From a virus, in UHGV virus genome UHGV-0042151: DNA of 35,904 nt. One strand, written 5' to 3'. A program made the position numbers and the translations under genes. This document shows positions 3,630 through 35,904 of this stretch, piece by piece (positions within the stretch are counted from its first letter, which is position 1; the number at the start of each line of letters is the position of its first letter). The notes below the pieces were generated by a model. That model saw nothing but the letters and a program-made list of their open reading frames with translations, had not been told where the DNA came from and searched no databases.

Positions 3630-3644
3630 TTACCGTTGAGGTAA
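3630..3644. promoter_or_regulatory. palindromic site TTACC-N5-GGTAA (proximal operator of early-left promoter)
   Basis: TTACCGTTGAGGTAA; lies between -10-like element and ATG 3610. Confidence 0.5.
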
Positions 3645-3896: not shown

Positions 3897-4481
3897 TTAT
3901 TGTTTGTTTTTTTCGTTATGGTTGATGACAAATTCAATGTAACTTTCGATCTTTGCTTTCTCGGTTTCGGGTAACAATGCGTAGCGCGAGCGATCATAGT
4001 TGATGGTCGCAGGGTCGTGCGGGTGAATCAGTAATTCATAGCCGTGACGCCCGAATGCGGATGCAACATTCTCCAGGGTGGAAATGGAAACGCTGACCTC
4101 ATTGTTTAACAGGCGGCTGATTGTCACCTGGGCTACGCCGGATGCGCGGTGAAGTTTTCCCTGTGTTGAAAGGTCGCGGCTTTCGCTCATCCAGCGTTCC
4201 AGGTTGTGAGCCGCCAGCTGGCCAATGTCGCTTGGGCCGACAGGCTGAAAACCTTCCTGAGAAAGCGAGCGATCGATATCAAGCCAGTTACGGGGTTTAT
4301 TGGCGGCAGCTTCAATTTTTCGTGCAACCTGGTCGCCGATAACCTTCTTGCCAAGAGCCCAGCGGTTTACCAGATTTGCCTGAGTTCCAAGTTTTTCAGC
4401 CATCCGCGTCTGAACACCATTGAATTCACGGTCGATCAAGTCGTTGAGATTTTGCCTGCGGACGTCCTGGATACTTTTCAT
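3897..4481 (-). CDS. phage repressor-like protein with two tandem XRE/CI-type HTH domains, no S24 peptidase domain
   Basis: 194 aa; HTH-like segments 'MAEKLGTQANLVNRWALGKK' and 'ASGVAQVTISRLLNNEVSVSISTLENVA'; divergent from Cro-like gene; no Ala-Gly/Ser-Lys autocleavage module seen. Confidence 0.65.
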   Translation of the reverse strand: MKSIQDVRRQNLNDLIDREFNGVQTRMAEKLGTQANLVNRWALGKKVIGDQVARKIEAAANKPRNWLDIDRSLSQEGFQPVGPSDIGQLAAHNLERWMSESRDLSTQGKLHRASGVAQVTISRLLNNEVSVSISTLENVASAFGRHGYELLIHPHDPATINYDRSRYALLPETEKAKIESYIEFVINHNEKNKQ

Positions 4482-4536
4482 TTTCTGGAAAATCGCCTCA
4501 TATATGAATCAGTAGATGATTCAATTTAAAGCAATA

Positions 4537-4551
4537 TTACCCAACAGGTAA
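4537..4551. promoter_or_regulatory. palindromic site TTACC-N5-GGTAA in repressor/cro intergenic region
   Basis: TTACCCAACAGGTAA; additional half-sites GGTAA (4563-4567) and TTACC (4586-4590) nearby. Confidence 0.5.
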
Positions 4552-4635
4552 ATGCACCCCACAGGTAACTATCCTTGATTTTTGTTACCTTATGGGTGAA
4601 TATTTATTATCTGAAATAAATATCAGGCAATAGCT

Positions 4636-4866
4636 ATGAGCGATAACGGACATTTCGATTTCAAAAAGCACTGGCTTGCACTTACTCCGGATGAGCGTGA
4701 AGCCTTCGCACAGGAAGCCGGAACGACGAGTCACTATATCCAGACTCACTTAACAGGTAAGCGCAAAATGCCAGGTAAGGTATTGATGAATGGGCTTTTT
4801 AAAGCCTGTAAAACAAGACAATGGCTGCGCTCAAAAGCAGAATTGGCATACTTCTTCTACTCATGA
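4636..4866 (+). CDS. Cro-like small HTH DNA-binding protein
   Basis: 76 aa, divergent to repressor; 'LTPDEREAFAQEAGTTSHYIQ' HTH-like; ends 24 nt before N-run. Confidence 0.5.
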   Translation: MSDNGHFDFKKHWLALTPDEREAFAQEAGTTSHYIQTHLTGKRKMPGKVLMNGLFKACKTRQWLRSKAELAYFFYS

Positions 4867-14709: not shown

Positions 14710-14786
14710 TGGCGTGGCATGCAGGATTCGAACCTGCGACCAACCGCTTAGAAGGCGGTTGCTCTGTCCAACTGAGCTAATGCCAC
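14710..14786 (-). tRNA. tRNA-Arg (anticodon UCU)
   Basis: Hand-folded cloverleaf: acceptor GTGGCAT/ATGCCAC, D-arm GCTC-AGTTGGACA-GAGC, anticodon arm ACCGC-CTTCTAA-GCGGT, T-arm GCAGG-TTCGAAT-CCTGC, 3' GCCA; similar to but distinct from E. coli argU as recalled. Confidence 0.9.
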
Positions 14787-31886: not shown

Positions 31887-31909
31887 CAAAAAAGCCCGCA
31901 GCGCGGGCT
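31887..31909 (-). terminator. rho-independent terminator (minus strand)
   Basis: AGCCCGC-gcu-GCGGGCU then U6 on minus strand, starting at the stop codon of the 31908 gene. Confidence 0.5.
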
Positions 31910-32348
31910 ATTCTTCTTCATCATTAAAAAGCGGATTGTTGTTTCCATCTGATGAAAGGAAAGGTATGTGTTCTCTTGAAAATCCAACAATGACAATTTC
32001 ATTATCATTTTTTGCATAATGAATGCATTCATTAGAATGCCTTCCGCCAGGGTTGAAATTTAAGTTAATGGTATAATTCTTAAATGTGTTTGGATACCAT
32101 GTTGGCCCACAATGATAATGCCAATAATTCTCTTGCTCATAATTGTCTGAGCCGGGAATTTTATCATGGTTATCATCAACCCACGAGGGCTTGTTTTTTC
32201 CAACAAGCGCCCTTCCATTGGCAACATCCTCTAAAAAACTTTGTATGATTTTTATTTCATCATCAGTAAGGAAAGGTCCGTCTACAGCGAAAGGGGTGTT
32301 GCTTTCCCCATGTAGAAAACTATTAGATATTCTAATGTTAAACTTCAA
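31908..32348 (-). CDS. hypothetical AT-rich protein (146 aa), second gene of two-gene operon
   Basis: TTG start 32348 with AGGAG SD 6 nt upstream (the track's ATG 32489 start has no SD and overlaps the small ORF); no recognisable domain. Confidence 0.4.
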   Translation of the reverse strand: MKFNIRISNSFLHGESNTPFAVDGPFLTDDEIKIIQSFLEDVANGRALVGKNKPSWVDDNHDKIPGSDNYEQENYWHYHCGPTWYPNTFKNYTINLNFNPGGRHSNECIHYAKNDNEIVIVGFSREHIPFLSSDGNNNPLFNDEEE

Positions 32349-32368
32349 GGAAAACTCCTGATGTGCTT

Positions 32369-32536
32369 CTATTTGGAGCGAAATGCCGCCTTGAAGTCGC
32401 TGAAAGATGTTCCTGTCTGGTAAACCATATCCTTGTCGCGCTCTTTGCTTGCGCGGCCAAGCATAACTTTTCCAATGACATCCCAGCATTGCTTGGCTTG
32501 TTCATTGTGCTGAGTACGATTTTTCAACGCTGTCAT
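32369..32536 (-). CDS. small hypothetical protein (55 aa), first gene of two-gene operon
   Basis: AGGAGG SD 6 nt before ATG 32536; 'MTALKNRTQHNEQAKQCWDVIGKVMLGRASKERDKDMVYQTGTSFSDFKAAFRSK'. Confidence 0.45.
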   Translation of the reverse strand: MTALKNRTQHNEQAKQCWDVIGKVMLGRASKERDKDMVYQTGTSFSDFKAAFRSK

Positions 32537-32548
32537 ATCGCGCCTCCT

Positions 32549-32563
32549 TTACCTTTAAGGTAA
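32549..32563. promoter_or_regulatory. palindromic site TTACC-N5-GGTAA at promoter of two-gene operon
   Basis: Minus-strand TTGCAG-17-TACTAT promoter-like element abuts the site; site abuts SD. Confidence 0.5.
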
Positions 32564-32611
32564 TAGTACGCTATTCACCCACAGTCTGCAATCTGTACAG
32601 AATTATTTAAA

Positions 32612-32627
32612 GGCACATCCCTGTGCC
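32612..32627 (-). terminator. possible terminator after Bro-N gene
   Basis: GGCACA-GGGA-TGTGCC hairpin with A/U-rich 3' flank on minus strand. Confidence 0.3.
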
Positions 32628-32635
32628 GCCGCCCG

Positions 32636-33322
32636 TCAGAAGAACCCAGCCTTGTCGTTGATGTACTCCGCGTGGGTCTGGATATCACGCAGGCATTTGC
32701 TCACACCAACAATGTAGCAGAACATGGTGGTCAGCTCCGCCGCCGCGCCCGATACGTCGTGCCCGTCTTCCTGTAACTGGTTCAGCAGATTCATCAGCAG
32801 TGAGTTCTCCGTCAGGCCGAGAACACCAGACGGAGAATGAATCAGGCTGCGGTAGCCGGGCTTCAGTGGGGCACTGTAGGTTTTGTTCTCTATCTTCATT
32901 GCCTGCATCACTGCTGATGCTGTGGCGTTGGCTACCTGGTCGGCAACTATCTTTATGCGTTCTTCCTGCGGGAGCGAGTTTTTAATGTAACTTCCGGTGC
33001 GGCGGATCTGAGGAAGAACCTCACCTGTAACCCATTTACGAAAGCGGTAGGGGATAGTGCCTGGTGTCACTGCGTCGCGGCAGCGGAGGATCAGTGTGTA
33101 GAGGCCTGACTCGTTGATAATATTGGTTTCACCTTGACGGCCTAAGTTAAATTTAGCCCTTTCATCATCATCAAGAGATTTTATTGACATAGTGGGGTTT
33201 GTCAGTTGAAGAGCTTTAATAACGTCTTTGGCAACAAACCAAGGATTTCCATCAATAACAATGGCTCGAATGGTGGCTTCTGATTCAAAATGAAAAACAG
33301 ATGGGGTTACGTTAGCAGTCAT
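32636..33322 (-). CDS. Bro-N domain antirepressor-like protein
   Basis: N-terminus 'IRAIVIDGNPWFVAKDVIKALQL...GLYTLILR' fits Bro-N; C-terminal domain homologous to the 34473..34730 product; AGGTGA SD then ATG 33322. Confidence 0.65.
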   Translation of the reverse strand: MTANVTPSVFHFESEATIRAIVIDGNPWFVAKDVIKALQLTNPTMSIKSLDDDERAKFNLGRQGETNIINESGLYTLILRCRDAVTPGTIPYRFRKWVTGEVLPQIRRTGSYIKNSLPQEERIKIVADQVANATASAVMQAMKIENKTYSAPLKPGYRSLIHSPSGVLGLTENSLLMNLLNQLQEDGHDVSGAAAELTTMFCYIVGVSKCLRDIQTHAEYINDKAGFF

Positions 33323-33481
33323 AGTGATCACCTTTTAGTATGGTTAATCACCACCTGAGGTGCAAATCTCGTTGGTGGTGAGACGTACAGGGTTTGCACT
33401 ACCGGCTAAAAGGACCCGGCGCACCTTTCGGTGCCCCTGCACGTCCCACCATAATTCTGGCATGACTGTGCTATACGCATA

Positions 33482-33503
33482 AAAAAACCACGTCTGGCGT
33501 GGT
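33482..33503 (-). terminator. intrinsic terminator inside Bro-N upstream region (possible sRNA or attenuator 3' end)
   Basis: Minus strand ACCACG-CCAGA-CGTGGT followed by U7. Confidence 0.4.
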
Positions 33504-33593
33504 ATGCGCCTTTTAGTAATCCGGGGTGCAAATCCCGGCACTGGATTTTGCCAGTGCCCGATTACTATGGCACAAGAGGAGTGCGATGTAAAT

Positions 33594-33608
33594 TTACCGA
33601 AAAGGTAA
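33594..33608. promoter_or_regulatory. palindromic site TTACC-N5-GGTAA
   Basis: TTACCGAAAAGGTAA; about 90 bp upstream (minus sense) of the 33482 terminator. Confidence 0.45.
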
Positions 33609-33686
33609 TGATAAGCGCGAAAAAACATTAAAATCAACCGTATTTGGTTGATTGCGTTTAACGCTTGATCACCTGAAAGCAAGATA

Positions 33687-33701
33687 TTACCTTTAAGGTA
33701 A
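33687..33701. promoter_or_regulatory. palindromic site TTACC-N5-GGTAA upstream of 33722 gene
   Basis: TTACCTTTAAGGTAA, 20 nt before ATG 33722, just 5' of GAGGA SD. Confidence 0.5.
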
Positions 33702-33721
33702 TGTTATTGTGAGGAAAAGCA

Positions 33722-34450
33722 ATGGAAGTTTTCTGGATAGTTGTTGGTGTGGTTGCGGTGATTATTTACGTTATCAACCAGAACAAGACTAAGATCTCTG
33801 ATCGTACGGTCGTTAATCAGAACAAAACGATAAAGACCGAAGATGGGGAGATAACGATTAATCGTACACAGGTGATAGAGCACACATCTACTCAGTTTCA
33901 AAAAACTGGAGGTAACGCGCCTGATATTTCCGTACCTCCTGCTTATGATAGTGCGGTAATCCAGACATATTATAAACAGCAGGAGTTAGCAAAAGAGAGG
34001 CAACTGATTCAGCCAAAGCCGTTTACAGCTGAGCTTCCACCTGGAGTGTCAACGCGTCCGGCATATCATGGAAGATTCCCTGGTGATGACATATCGTCTC
34101 AGTCATTTAAAAAAGCACCTCAGGCAGTATCAGAGCCAGCAAGAATATCTTCTGTATCGCCGCCAAAAGAAGAATCAGCTAACAGAGTTTCAAGCGGTAG
34201 CAAGCAGTGCTTGCGATGCAGAATAAACCTTCCATATGAAAAATTCAGGAAATCGTCAAAAAATCCGGATGGATTGACTAAGTGGTGTGCAAGGTGTCTC
34301 GATGGCCCAAAGAATACACGTCATATGAAGTGGTGCCCAATTTGTAATGTCCGCAGAAAACGAACCAGCTTTTACCCTAATAATCAAAATGCGGACGGCT
34401 TAATGGCATGGTGCAAAACGTGCTGGGACGAGCACAAAGCGAAACGATAG
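33722..34450 (+). CDS. membrane-anchored protein with duplicated C-terminal zinc-ribbon (CxxC...WCxxC) modules
   Basis: N-terminal TM helix 'FWIVVGVVAVIIYVI'; 'CLRCRIN...WCARCLD' and 'WCPICNV...WCKTCWD'. Confidence 0.5.
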   Translation: MEVFWIVVGVVAVIIYVINQNKTKISDRTVVNQNKTIKTEDGEITINRTQVIEHTSTQFQKTGGNAPDISVPPAYDSAVIQTYYKQQELAKERQLIQPKPFTAELPPGVSTRPAYHGRFPGDDISSQSFKKAPQAVSEPARISSVSPPKEESANRVSSGSKQCLRCRINLPYEKFRKSSKNPDGLTKWCARCLDGPKNTRHMKWCPICNVRRKRTSFYPNNQNADGLMAWCKTCWDEHKAKR

Positions 34451-34474
34451 GCCGCTCTTGCGGCCTTTAAATTT
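34450..34474. terminator. bidirectional intrinsic terminator between convergent genes
   Basis: GGCCGC-tctt-GCGGCC followed by TTTAAATTT. Confidence 0.5.
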
Positions 34475-34730
34475 ACCGGGTTTGTTTTCGTAATTGTTCG
34501 GCACAATAGTCGAGATGTGTTTGCAGATCCTGCATAGACATCTGTGAGCTGGTGACGTAGTTAATCAGTGCAGTCAGTTCGGCAAGTGGGCCATCGACAT
34601 TAAATCCATCCTTATCGAGATCCCGGAGTAATTTCATCAAGTGCGATCCCTCCACCAGTGACCTGACGCCTCCCGGCGTGTGAATCCTTTCGGTAAATCC
34701 GTCTTCCAGTGGATAGTGATACTGCTGCAT
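34473..34730 (-). CDS. small antirepressor-like protein (85 aa), SOS-regulated
   Basis: GGAGAA SD then ATG 34730; homologous to C-terminal domain of Bro-N protein ('SLVEGSHLMKLLRDLDKDGFNVDGPLAELT' vs 'GLTENSLLMNLLNQLQEDGHDVSGAAAELT'); LexA box 22 nt upstream. Confidence 0.55.
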   Translation of the reverse strand: MQQYHYPLEDGFTERIHTPGGVRSLVEGSHLMKLLRDLDKDGFNVDGPLAELTALINYVTSSQMSMQDLQTHLDYCAEQLRKQTR

Positions 34731-34751
34731 CTTATCTTCTCCATGCAATAA

Positions 34752-34767
34752 CTGTATATTTATACAG
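34752..34767. promoter_or_regulatory. LexA (SOS) box
   Basis: CTGTATATTTATACAG = CTGT-N8-ACAG with AT-rich core; extended AACTGTATATTTATACAGTA matches 18/20 of the consensus TACTGTATATATATACAGTA. Confidence 0.6.
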
Positions 34768-34806
34768 TAGCAAATAATTTGTTTGCTATCCAGCACGTTT
34801 TGCAAA

Positions 34807-34821
34807 TTACCTGAAAGGTAA
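34807..34821. promoter_or_regulatory. palindromic site TTACC-N5-GGTAA between antirepressor and tailspike genes
   Basis: TTACCTGAAAGGTAA. Confidence 0.45.
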
Positions 34822-34925
34822 TATCTATTCGTATTCACAGTCTTTCTATCCATATATGGTTTTTCAGGTAATAGAATAACCAGATATGCGGCGCAACGGG
34901 TGCTGCGACTATCTGGAGATTTAAC

Positions 34926-35904
34926 ATGACGGTCTCAACCGAAGTTGACCACAACGAATACACCGGTAACGGCGTTACGACATCATTTCCGTATACCTTC
35001 CGTATTTTCAAAAAAACCGACCTGGTTGTTCAGGTGTCTGACCTGAACGGGAACGTAACAGAATTGGTTCTGGATACCGGTTATAAGGTAACTGGAGCGG
35101 GCACTTATAGTGGCGGTGAAGTGGTTCTCCCGTCGCCGCTTGCTGCTGGCTGGCGAATTACGATAGAGCGTGTGCTTGATGTGGTGCAGGAGACTGATCT
35201 TCGCAATCAGGGAAAATTTTTCCCCGAAGTTCATGAAGATGCATTTGACTACCTGACGATGCTGATCCAGCGATGTTTTGGGTGGTTCAGACGTGCATTG
35301 ATGAAACCATCTTTGCTTGCAAAATATTACGATGCAAAGCAAAACAAAATTTCTAACCTTGCAGATCCATCATTTGAGCAGGACGCTGTAAATAATCGCT
35401 CAATGCGTAATTATGTCGATGCTGCAATCGCCGGGGTTGTTGGTGGTTTTGGTTGGTTTATACCGTCAGGAAGCGGGGCAAGACAACGAACATTTCAAAG
35501 CAAAATGAGGGATATAATTTCTCCTTGTGATTACGAAGATAATATTTTTATGATTAAGGAGTTGATATCCAAAGGCAAAAATGCCGCTGTTTTTAACTCA
35601 TATTATACTTTTGTTATTACTGTTGGCGAATGGGGTGATTACCCTACACTCAAAGATGCAATCATTGCAGCCCAGTCAATGAGACCTATGTGGGATGGTG
35701 GTAATGCTTTCTGCGAAATAAGAATTAAGACCGGGCATATTATCAACTATCAAATTGAATTCAGTTCAGGTGTTGATTTGTCTTGGATTAAAATAACATC
35801 AGAAGACTCAGTGGTTTTCTCTGACACTCGTTTGTTTACTAAAATCGTTAGAACGTATTACGAATACAAGTATTTATTTTACATTTGCGATGCAGCAAAA
35901 AGTC
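34926..35904 (+). CDS. tailspike / tail fibre protein, 3'-truncated at window edge
   Basis: Open frame from ATG 34926 to end of window; N-terminus 'EYTGNGVTTSFPYTFRIFKKTDLVVQV' resembles the conserved particle-binding domain of podovirus tail fibres (T7 gp17-like pattern) as recalled; absent from ORF track because no stop is reached. Confidence 0.7.
   Translation, partial: MTVSTEVDHNEYTGNGVTTSFPYTFRIFKKTDLVVQVSDLNGNVTELVLDTGYKVTGAGTYSGGEVVLPSPLAAGWRITIERVLDVVQETDLRNQGKFFPEVHEDAFDYLTMLIQRCFGWFRRALMKPSLLAKYYDAKQNKISNLADPSFEQDAVNNRSMRNYVDAAIAGVVGGFGWFIPSGSGARQRTFQSKMRDIISPCDYEDNIFMIKELISKGKNAAVFNSYYTFVITVGEWGDYPTLKDAIIAAQSMRPMWDGGNAFCEIRIKTGHIINYQIEFSSGVDLSWIKITSEDSVVFSDTRLFTKIVRTYYEYKYLFYICDAAKS

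Follow-up and report, generated by a model that had tools for sequence, protein, structure and literature searches.

The viral genome UHGV-0042151, a stretch of 35,904 nucleotides (nt) that was analysed at its full length and is referred to here as the window, represents an epsilon15/phiV10-like prophage of the genus Uetakevirus with Escherichia coli as host, and it carries two antirepressor genes, a long and a short one, that share a domain. Our analysis makes it probable that this domain is one Rep-targeting module placed in two differently regulated antirepressors, of which one serves as an SOS arm and the other as an RNA-gated immunity or anti-immunity arm, with the phage's own repressor Rep as the target. 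The components as such are already known, namely Ant of the Salmonella phage SPC32H, antirepressors with a Bro-N domain, the C4/isrK RNAs and control by LexA. What seems not to have been described is that the two genes, as paralogs, are constructed around a single domain matched to Rep, that this domain of about 80 residues common to both antirepressors, here termed AntC, has been shuffled among at least five N-terminal modules, and that prophages of the Uetakevirus type possess a second, RNA-coded layer of specificity. The genes in question, the parts of their products and the presumed target are as follows.

32636-33322, minus strand: long antirepressor gene, coding for 228 aa if read from the ATG and for 231 aa from a GTG further upstream
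33011-33271, minus strand: Bro-N domain of the long protein (residues 18-104), separated from AntC by a helical linker
32639-32884, minus strand: AntC domain of the long protein (residues 147-228)
34473-34730, minus strand: short antirepressor gene, 85 aa, consisting of the AntC domain alone, ortholog of SPC32H Ant
34752-34767, no strand assigned: LexA (SOS) box CTGTATATTTATACAG of the short gene, located in its promoter region, the sole CTGT-N8-ACAG with an A/T-only spacer
3897-4481, minus strand: repressor gene of the prophage; its product Rep, which both antirepressors presumably target, matches SPC32H Rep (5D50_A) along its whole length (phmmer, E 1.7e-41)

A first-pass annotation had proposed that the 228-aa Bro-N protein and the 85-aa protein are similar over about 70 residues, that the short one is a stand-alone repressor-binding module and that the long one adds a Bro-N domain, and all three proposals are borne out. 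By BLASTP, residues 147-224 of the long protein align without a gap to residues 2-79 of the short one (31 of 78 identical, or 40%, with 58% positives, E 1e-19), and 15 positions are invariant in both subfamilies. The N-terminal part of the long protein matches Pfam Bro-N (PF02498) at residues 18-104 with 72.2 bits against a gathering threshold of 25.6. Its residues 145-226 match phrog_450 (E 4e-36), the family of the short protein, and its C-terminal domain is also recognized by phmmer in 5D50_E (E 1.1e-13), while tblastn with either domain found no third copy in the whole window. The short protein itself aligns with chain E of PDB entry 5D50, designated 'Anti-repressor protein', with its residues 2-84 on 3-85 (phmmer, E 4.1e-47), and it is 88% identical to SPC32H Ant and of equal length. 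This entry is the Rep-Ant complex of SPC32H, so that a closely related stand-alone domain has been crystallized together with its repressor.

The short gene is an already known kind of gene, and like its SPC32H counterpart it adjoins the tailspike gene. Antirepression by SPC32H Ant and Rep has reportedly been treated by Kim & Ryu (J Virol, 2013) and Kim et al. (PNAS, 2016), with 5D50 and 5D4Z as the structures. According to a further account, the tetramer of SPC32H Ant associates with two dimers of Rep and disrupts the Rep tetramer that binds DNA (PMC9638917); Ant is also cited among the LexA-controlled, Tum-like antirepressors. By analogy with this ortholog, the short protein of the window would form a tetramer and release Rep. 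With its predicted LexA box, the short gene would be under SOS control: CTGT-N8-ACAG occurs three times in the window, with an all-A/T spacer solely at 34752-34767, and the box taken as the 20-mer TACTGTATAAATATACAGTT deviates from the consensus TACTGTATATATATACAGTA at 2 of 20 positions. It ends 21 nt from the ATG, and its position is kept in 11 related loci, SPC32H among them. Rep of the window is 41% identical to SPC32H Rep overall, with 53% in the N-terminal and 37% in the C-terminal domain, and in the phage collection Rep occurs in 37 records and short Ant in 35, essentially the same genomes. As a separate observation, short Ant is better conserved than its presumed target, since it is 88% identical between the E. 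coli and Salmonella lineages as compared to 37% for the C-terminal domain of Rep.

Control of the long gene is organized differently. The earlier annotation had assigned the LexA box to the short gene only and a separate structured region to the long one; consistent with the former, a scan with relaxed criteria detected nothing resembling a LexA site ahead of the long gene, either in the window or in 10 related loci, and the latter was identified as a pair of RNAs known to Rfam, isrK and C4, which lie between a predicted promoter and the leader of the long gene.

33564-33592, minus strand: P_isrK, a predicted sigma-70 promoter from the promoter scan (TTTACA, 17-nt spacer, TG-n-CATAGT)
33481-33557, minus strand: isrK-type RNA with intrinsic terminator (Rfam RF01394, 67.4 bits against a gathering score of 50)
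33526-33532, minus strand: isrK decoy site a1, UUUGCAC, in the loop of isrK hairpin 2, complementary to C4
33509-33516, minus strand: isrK decoy site b1, CUAAAAGG, complementary to C4
33371-33456, minus strand: C4 antisense RNA (Rfam RF01695, 77.8 bits against a gathering score of 45, model positions 1-87, full length)
33406-33413, minus strand: C4 segment b', CCUUUUAG, in the loop of hairpin 2
33393-33399, minus strand: C4 segment a', GUGCAAA, in the single strand following hairpin 2
33323-33370, minus strand: leader of the long gene with the C4 target sites a2 (33360-33366) and b2 (33331-33338)

The -10 element of P_isrK, which is present in all loci compared, ends 7 nt before the first base of the isrK match, and the isrK terminator consists of a hairpin and a U-run. 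In the window, a' of C4 is perfectly complementary to both a1 and a2 over 7 nt and b' to both b1 and b2 over 8 nt; b2 overlaps the Shine-Dalgarno sequence AAGGUG (33329-33334), and in nine of ten loci it ends 8 nt from the AUG. Over 11 loci, the three partners of each set co-vary. Four a-types (UUUGCAC, UUGGCGU, UUGGUCU and UUGAGAC) and four b-types (CUAAAAGG; CUACAAAGG; CUAAACGG/CUAAGCGG; CUAAGUGG) give seven combinations, and the duplexes of a' with a1 and a2 (7 nt) and of b' with b1 and b2 (8-9 nt) are perfect inside every locus and not across specificity classes, so that C4 of one class mismatches the leader of another. Four of the seven classes occur among E. coli phages whose Rep proteins are 98-99.5% identical. 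Pairing of C4 with isrK and with the leader is thus shown by covariation, and a regulatory effect of this pairing would be expected by analogy with the phage P1 and the prophage Gifsy-1. The two RNAs immediately precede the long gene in each of the nine further phage loci fetched and in one Salmonella prophage; the pair is absent from SPC32H, a phage without the long gene.

That Salmonella prophage (L015; Salmonella enterica GCA_040124545.1, 9331-10687) encodes a short Ant identical to SPC32H Ant together with a full cassette of isrK, C4 and Bro-N-AntC, and the long arm is therefore not confined to the E. coli lineage. The prophage has the a-site of the window together with a b-site of type CUACAAAGG, which constitutes the seventh specificity combination. 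No small open reading frame (ORF) of the icd type and coupled to ant is conserved at the locus. The 'ash' ORF of phage ZX5 was considered as an equivalent of icd or orf45 and rejected, as it overlaps C4 and is frameshifted in the window; the corresponding ZX5 annotation ('ash family protein', 2382-2495 of the ZX5 locus), which overlaps the C4 RNA gene, probably denotes no genuine gene, given that the reading frame is broken in the window.

If AntC is the part that recognizes Rep, it should remain constant within an immunity group irrespective of what precedes it, and its distribution follows this expectation. In phages with a Rep 98-99.5% identical to that of the window, the long protein retains 98-100% identity at residues 149-228, even if these follow a Bro-N domain only 54-66% identical to that of the window (TL-2011b gp46, ZX5 and EC.W1-9) or an entirely different module, such as AntA in phiv142-3 and P22_AR_N in TL-2011b gp42. 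Such identity despite swapped N-terminal domains indicates that N-terminal modules are exchanged by recombination and that the C-terminal one stays with its immunity group, a pattern expected from these sequences if the C-terminal domain recognizes Rep. Outside the E. coli lineage, the two diverge together:

Tyrion (Enterobacter) against the window: Rep C-terminal domain 72%, long C-terminal domain 79% identical
Klebsiella against the window: Rep C-terminal domain 43%, long C-terminal domain 55% identical
Salmonella prophage L015 against the window: long C-terminal domain 71% identical, with the SPC32H Rep C-terminal domain (37%) as a stand-in for Rep

Every genome of the phage collection that has the long type in full length also encodes this Rep family and short Ant. 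Full-length homologs of the long protein at 67% identity or more form more than 120 clusters across the Enterobacteriaceae, with a strongly conserved C-terminal domain. A profile built from both AntC subfamilies gave 62 matches in all among 1.84 billion representative proteins; the exhaustive profile search was needed for the fusions, as a word-indexed protein search with short Ant found close stand-alone relatives alone. AntC occurs by itself in proteins of 81-96 aa and C-terminally behind Bro-N, AntA, Phage_pRha, ORF6N and P22_AR_N, and neither Pfam nor NCBIfam has a model that covers it. Matches of 95 aa that resembled a stand-alone form of the long type were dropped as a separate architecture, as they start at an internal Met of the linker (MPAILEAMK...) and are probably truncated calls or fragments.

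Two further observations concern individual relatives. In TL-2011b, gp42 (733-1917 of the locus) carries a P22_AR_N domain in front of a C-terminal domain 98% identical to that of the long protein of the window, and it follows an Arc-like repressor and a sar RNA (904-971 of the locus) in a P22-type immI cassette; since gp42 exists besides the other two, this phage has three antirepressors with one common C-terminal domain. In phiV10, the long gene (4071-4750 of the locus) is split into ORFs of 194 aa and 30 aa by a frameshift inside the C-terminal domain, and the same is found in the O157 typing phages 9 and 10, so that these phages probably lack a functional long Ant.

Both antirepressor cassettes also appear to be connected to Rep itself, because a copy of an operator-like palindrome, TTACC-N5-GGTAA (OP), is located at P_isrK and another upstream of the LexA box. 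The window contains 14 copies, with 0.46 expected, which start at positions 3630, 3692, 4537, 4585, 5047, 6975, 7037, 11901, 11919, 15109, 32549, 33594, 33687 and 34807. We infer that OP is the Rep operator, as clusters of it sit between rep and the divergent cro-like gene; Rep is described as a binder of palindromic sites in PMC9638917. Intergenic rep-cro clusters of one or two exact and additional degenerate copies are likewise present in SPC32H, Kp4865-1 and Tyrion, with more copies downstream of rep. The copies of most interest here, none with a strand assigned, are these.

34807-34821: OP 54 bp ahead of the LexA box, in the gap between the divergent short and tailspike genes
33687-33701: OP near a 242-aa ORF, 21 nt before its ATG and 93 bp upstream of the OP at P_isrK
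33594-33608: OP at P_isrK, abutting the -35 hexamer (about -51 to -37), candidate Rep operator of the isrK-C4-ant cassette
32549-32563: OP downstream of the long gene, overlapping the TACTAT predicted as -10 element of the small operon that follows (a 55-aa and a YafO-like ORF)
4537 and 4585: OP sites in the rep-cro intergenic region, from the palindrome scan

The usual order in relatives, on one strand, is OP, LexA box, short ant, OP, P_isrK, isrK, C4 and long ant. The spacing between OP and the LexA box is 53-54 bp in every locus, and the distance from the start of OP to the first base of isrK is 51 nt in the window, in seven of the nine phage loci fetched and in the Salmonella prophage, TL-2011b being left out of this count; in phiV10, OP is located 48 nt before that base and abuts no TTTACA hexamer. 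In addition, OP precedes nearly every operon, including those of structural genes (11901/11919 and 15109) and each accessory cassette, and this distribution looks like a genome-wide Rep regulon and not like a classical O_L/O_R pair. A comparison of OP half-sites with the DNA-binding domain of Rep gives no information on co-variation, since TTACC-N5-GGTAA does not differ among the lineages from E. coli, Enterobacter, Klebsiella and Salmonella.

The arrangement upstream of the long gene resembles the immI region of the phages P1 and P7, which according to Citron & Schuster (1990) is reportedly an operon of c4 antisense RNA, icd and ant. There, C4 is said to be processed from the ant transcript, with its specificity set by a few co-varying bases and with an operator of the main repressor at the promoter. 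Both systems have a1 and b1 upstream and a2 and b2 downstream of C4, b2 over a ribosome-binding site and specificity bases that co-vary. Unlike P1, the window has no conserved icd-like ORF, and its b2 covers the Shine-Dalgarno sequence of ant itself; furthermore, its antirepressor ends in a different C-terminal domain matched to a different repressor, and the phage is a podovirus with a second antirepressor under LexA control. The isrK-orf45(STnc1160)-anrP region of Gifsy-1 likewise places isrK and then C4 ahead of an antirepressor-like gene, and its isrK region also matches the Rfam family 'c4-a1b1'. In Gifsy-1, IsrK acts in trans to activate translation of the downstream antirepressor-like protein AnrP, which induces the prophage (Hershko-Shalev et al. 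2016, PMC4825925). In contrast to the long protein, AnrP has an N-terminal domain of the ORF6N type and an unrelated C-terminal domain, with no significant BLASTP match to either the long or the short protein, and an equivalent of orf45 is not conserved at the locus of the window. A general rule by which a LexA-controlled stand-alone antirepressor and an isrK/C4-controlled fused one share their C-terminal domain was considered and fails in Gifsy-1, where the C-terminal domain of AnrP has no paralog. The P22 immI region (arc, sar RNA, ant) is comparable in so far as its version in TL-2011b (gp41/gp42) ends in AntC, and it differs by its P22_AR_N domain and its control by Arc and sar RNA; such an Arc/sar cassette is absent from the window. 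SPC32H, finally, shares with the window the short protein, the LexA box, the position next to the tailspike gene, a Rep homolog and OP in the rep-cro region. In contrast, it has no second antirepressor and no isrK/C4 cassette, and its Rep is only 41% identical.

The closest functional precedent for the long protein is ORF4 of phage vB_EcoP_ZX5, an 'anti-repressor' that is its ortholog, with a Bro-N domain and a 100% identical C-terminal domain, in a phage whose Rep is 99.5% identical to that of the window; the Bro-N part is 66% identical and the a-type of C4 differs. When ORF4 was overexpressed, rep mRNA fell by 75% and the titre of lysogens from 1e9 to 1e6 (Li et al. 2022, PMC9782041), and ORF4 acted when expressed alone from a plasmid during infection. 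That study is silent on short Ant, LexA, SPC32H and the RNAs.

Taken together, the following scenario appears most probable. LexA would hold the short gene off until DNA damage leads to LexA cleavage, synthesis of Ant, inactivation of Rep and induction, a route demonstrated for the SPC32H ortholog that we infer for the window by analogy. As in SPC32H Ant, AntC would form a tetramer and remove Rep from its operators. Long Ant is a fusion of Bro-N to the paralogous AntC in a separate cassette of the P1 immI type, in which C4 would pair with a2 and b2 and thereby cover the Shine-Dalgarno sequence, so that translation of long Ant should be blocked as long as a matching C4 is present. IsrK, which bears the same two sites, could titrate C4. 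Short Ant would accordingly be the SOS trigger and long Ant a second arm that acts after derepression or on superinfection ('anti-immunity'), and the type of C4 would add a second immunity specificity independent of that of Rep. In compact loci, in which about 30 nt separate the stop codon of the short gene from the OP of P_isrK, it might even be speculated that SOS-induced transcripts read into isrK and add further decoy sites for C4. Both proteins most likely act on the phage's own Rep, and the earlier suggestion that the two act at different stages fits well with separate control by LexA on the one hand and isrK/C4 on the other. We hold it doubtful, and would not go so far as to propose, that AntC is a portable Rep-specific 'warhead' with at least five N-terminal modules, up to three circuits per genome (LexA, C4/isrK and Arc/sar) and mixed tetramers that integrate two signals; such mixed tetramers, which are conceivable because both paralogs keep the 15 invariant positions, would allow the RNA-gated long form to tune or to veto the short form triggered by SOS.

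Several other explanations have to be weighed. The C-terminal domain of the long protein might merely tetramerize and not touch Rep, with the activity residing in the Bro-N, AntA or P22_AR_N module, which would bind DNA or another target. SPC32H Ant is described as a tetramer, the low confidence of the AlphaFold2 (AF2) monomer model for the C-terminal domain is what an obligate oligomer would give, the N-terminal modules are classical antirepressor or DNA-binding-like domains, and the non-significant Foldseek matches of the N-terminal domain (SKI-DHD, Mbp1) are DNA-binding folds. However, an oligomerization domain has no need to stay 98-100% identical within one Rep type while the N-terminal domains are swapped or to be confined to genomes with this Rep family, and in SPC32H the stand-alone domain suffices as antirepressor (5D50); we therefore regard this explanation as unlikely, although it carries some weight. 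Somewhat less credence is given to the view, already raised in the first-pass annotation, that the two proteins target different repressors, the short one the resident Rep and the long one that of a co-resident prophage or of a heteroimmune Uetakevirus. The two C-terminal domains are just 40% identical, those of the long type differ between host genera, and antirepressors that act in trans to cross-induce prophages are on record for Salmonella (Lemire 2011). Against this, within the E. coli lineage the long C-terminal domain is invariant along with Rep (98-100% identity with the E. coli-type Rep), it diverges with the lineage of Rep, no long type occurs in the phage collection without this Rep family and short Ant, and ORF4 of ZX5 acts on ZX5 itself by lowering its lysogeny (PMC9782041). 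Different repressors are thus not favoured, and no pointer to cross-talk between prophages emerged from our analysis.

It is also improbable that the long protein works solely through mixed tetramers, in which it would, under the control of C4, enhance or poison the SOS-induced Ant without acting alone. The 15 positions invariant in both subfamilies, the tetrameric state described for the SPC32H ortholog and the tandem arrangement of the genes, with just isrK and C4 between them in most loci, would fit such an interaction, but many phages that retain the short gene and are intact in other respects lack the long one or have it frameshifted, and ORF4 of ZX5 works when expressed alone from a plasmid. 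That the similarity is due to chance, or that the long gene is a decayed and functionless duplicate, has a practically negligible probability: the frameshifted copy of phiV10 is the single point in its favour, as opposed to an E value of 1e-19, a full-length and intact gene in the window, more than 120 clusters of full-length homologs and the strong conservation of the C-terminal domain.

Some results weigh against our preferred explanation of one Rep-targeting module in two antirepressors. The C-terminal domain of the long protein is 40% identical to short Ant, and its binding to Rep is a prediction. The AF2 model of the long protein, based on 25 homologs, is confident for Bro-N alone, with the linker and the C-terminal domain poorly predicted and confidence values (predicted local distance difference test, pLDDT) of 36-64 at residues 114-228; accordingly weak are the Foldseek results for this monomer model against the PDB, in which no match reached E <= 0.001 and 5D50 was not matched, the best, non-significant matches of the N-terminal domain being the SKI-DHD and Mbp1 DNA-binding folds. 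As phiV10 has a frameshift in the long gene and several relatives are devoid of it, this gene is dispensable and has to be regarded as accessory. Between E. coli and Salmonella, short Ant is conserved to 88% as compared to 37% for the C-terminal domain of Rep, so that co-variation with Rep is approximate and, given the few lineages, confounded with the host lineage; for L015, the comparison leans on SPC32H Rep and not on the prophage's own. The identification of OP as operator rests on its position and on secondary descriptions of SPC32H, and as OP is centred at about -44 of P_isrK, Rep could either repress or activate that promoter.

With respect to the surroundings, the region 32300-35000 is 94.7% identical to Escherichia phage TL-2011b, 92% identical to phiV10 and 100% identical to the chromosome of E. 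coli MS 198-1. Partial matches to it occur in 594 of 5426 complete E. coli genomes (~11%), and at least 80% of the region is matched in 105. Between the two antirepressor genes lies one that is read from the other strand:

33722-34450, plus strand: 242-aa ORF (phrog_6762, unknown function; misc_feature in TL-2011b)

This insertion is present in the window and in TL-2011b, and the compact loci of ZX5, Tyrion and the Klebsiella phages lack it; it is outside the antirepressor system and uncouples the two ant genes. The encoded protein has a hydrophobic N-terminal segment and a Cys-rich C-terminal region that resembles endonuclease VII or Lar-like zinc motifs. Downstream of the long gene, a small two-gene unit (31908-32536, minus strand) consists of a 55-aa ORF overlapping a 193-aa ORF, and the counterpart of the latter in TL-2011b bears the annotation of a YafO-family toxin; no Pfam match was obtained for either ORF. 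A tRNA-Arg gene (anticodon TCT) is located within the prophage at 14710-14786, minus strand, between the terminase and portal regions. RefSeq lists the short antirepressor as a 'hypothetical protein' and leaves the isrK and C4 RNAs unannotated, and phrog_450 carries the PHROGs label of unknown function. Wrong starts are frequent in public gene calls of both antirepressors (proteins P0003 and P0210): a 126-aa call of short Ant (34473-34853), whose cluster has 833 members, spans the LexA box and OP, and a 279-aa call of long Ant (32636-33475) runs through the C4 RNA gene.

If both genes indeed use one Rep-targeting domain, this would explain how such a prophage can be induced by DNA damage and by a second route that is RNA-gated or triggered by superinfection. 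It would further predict an RNA-encoded layer of immunity that decides which related phages break each other's lysogeny. AntC would then define a domain family that is missing from Pfam and NCBIfam and of which a stand-alone member has been crystallized with its target, which makes the forms fused to Bro-N, AntA, Rha, ORF6N and P22_AR_N directly testable. Thus, the two genes may provide a handle on the old question of which half of the Bro-N/KilA-type antirepressors contacts the repressor.

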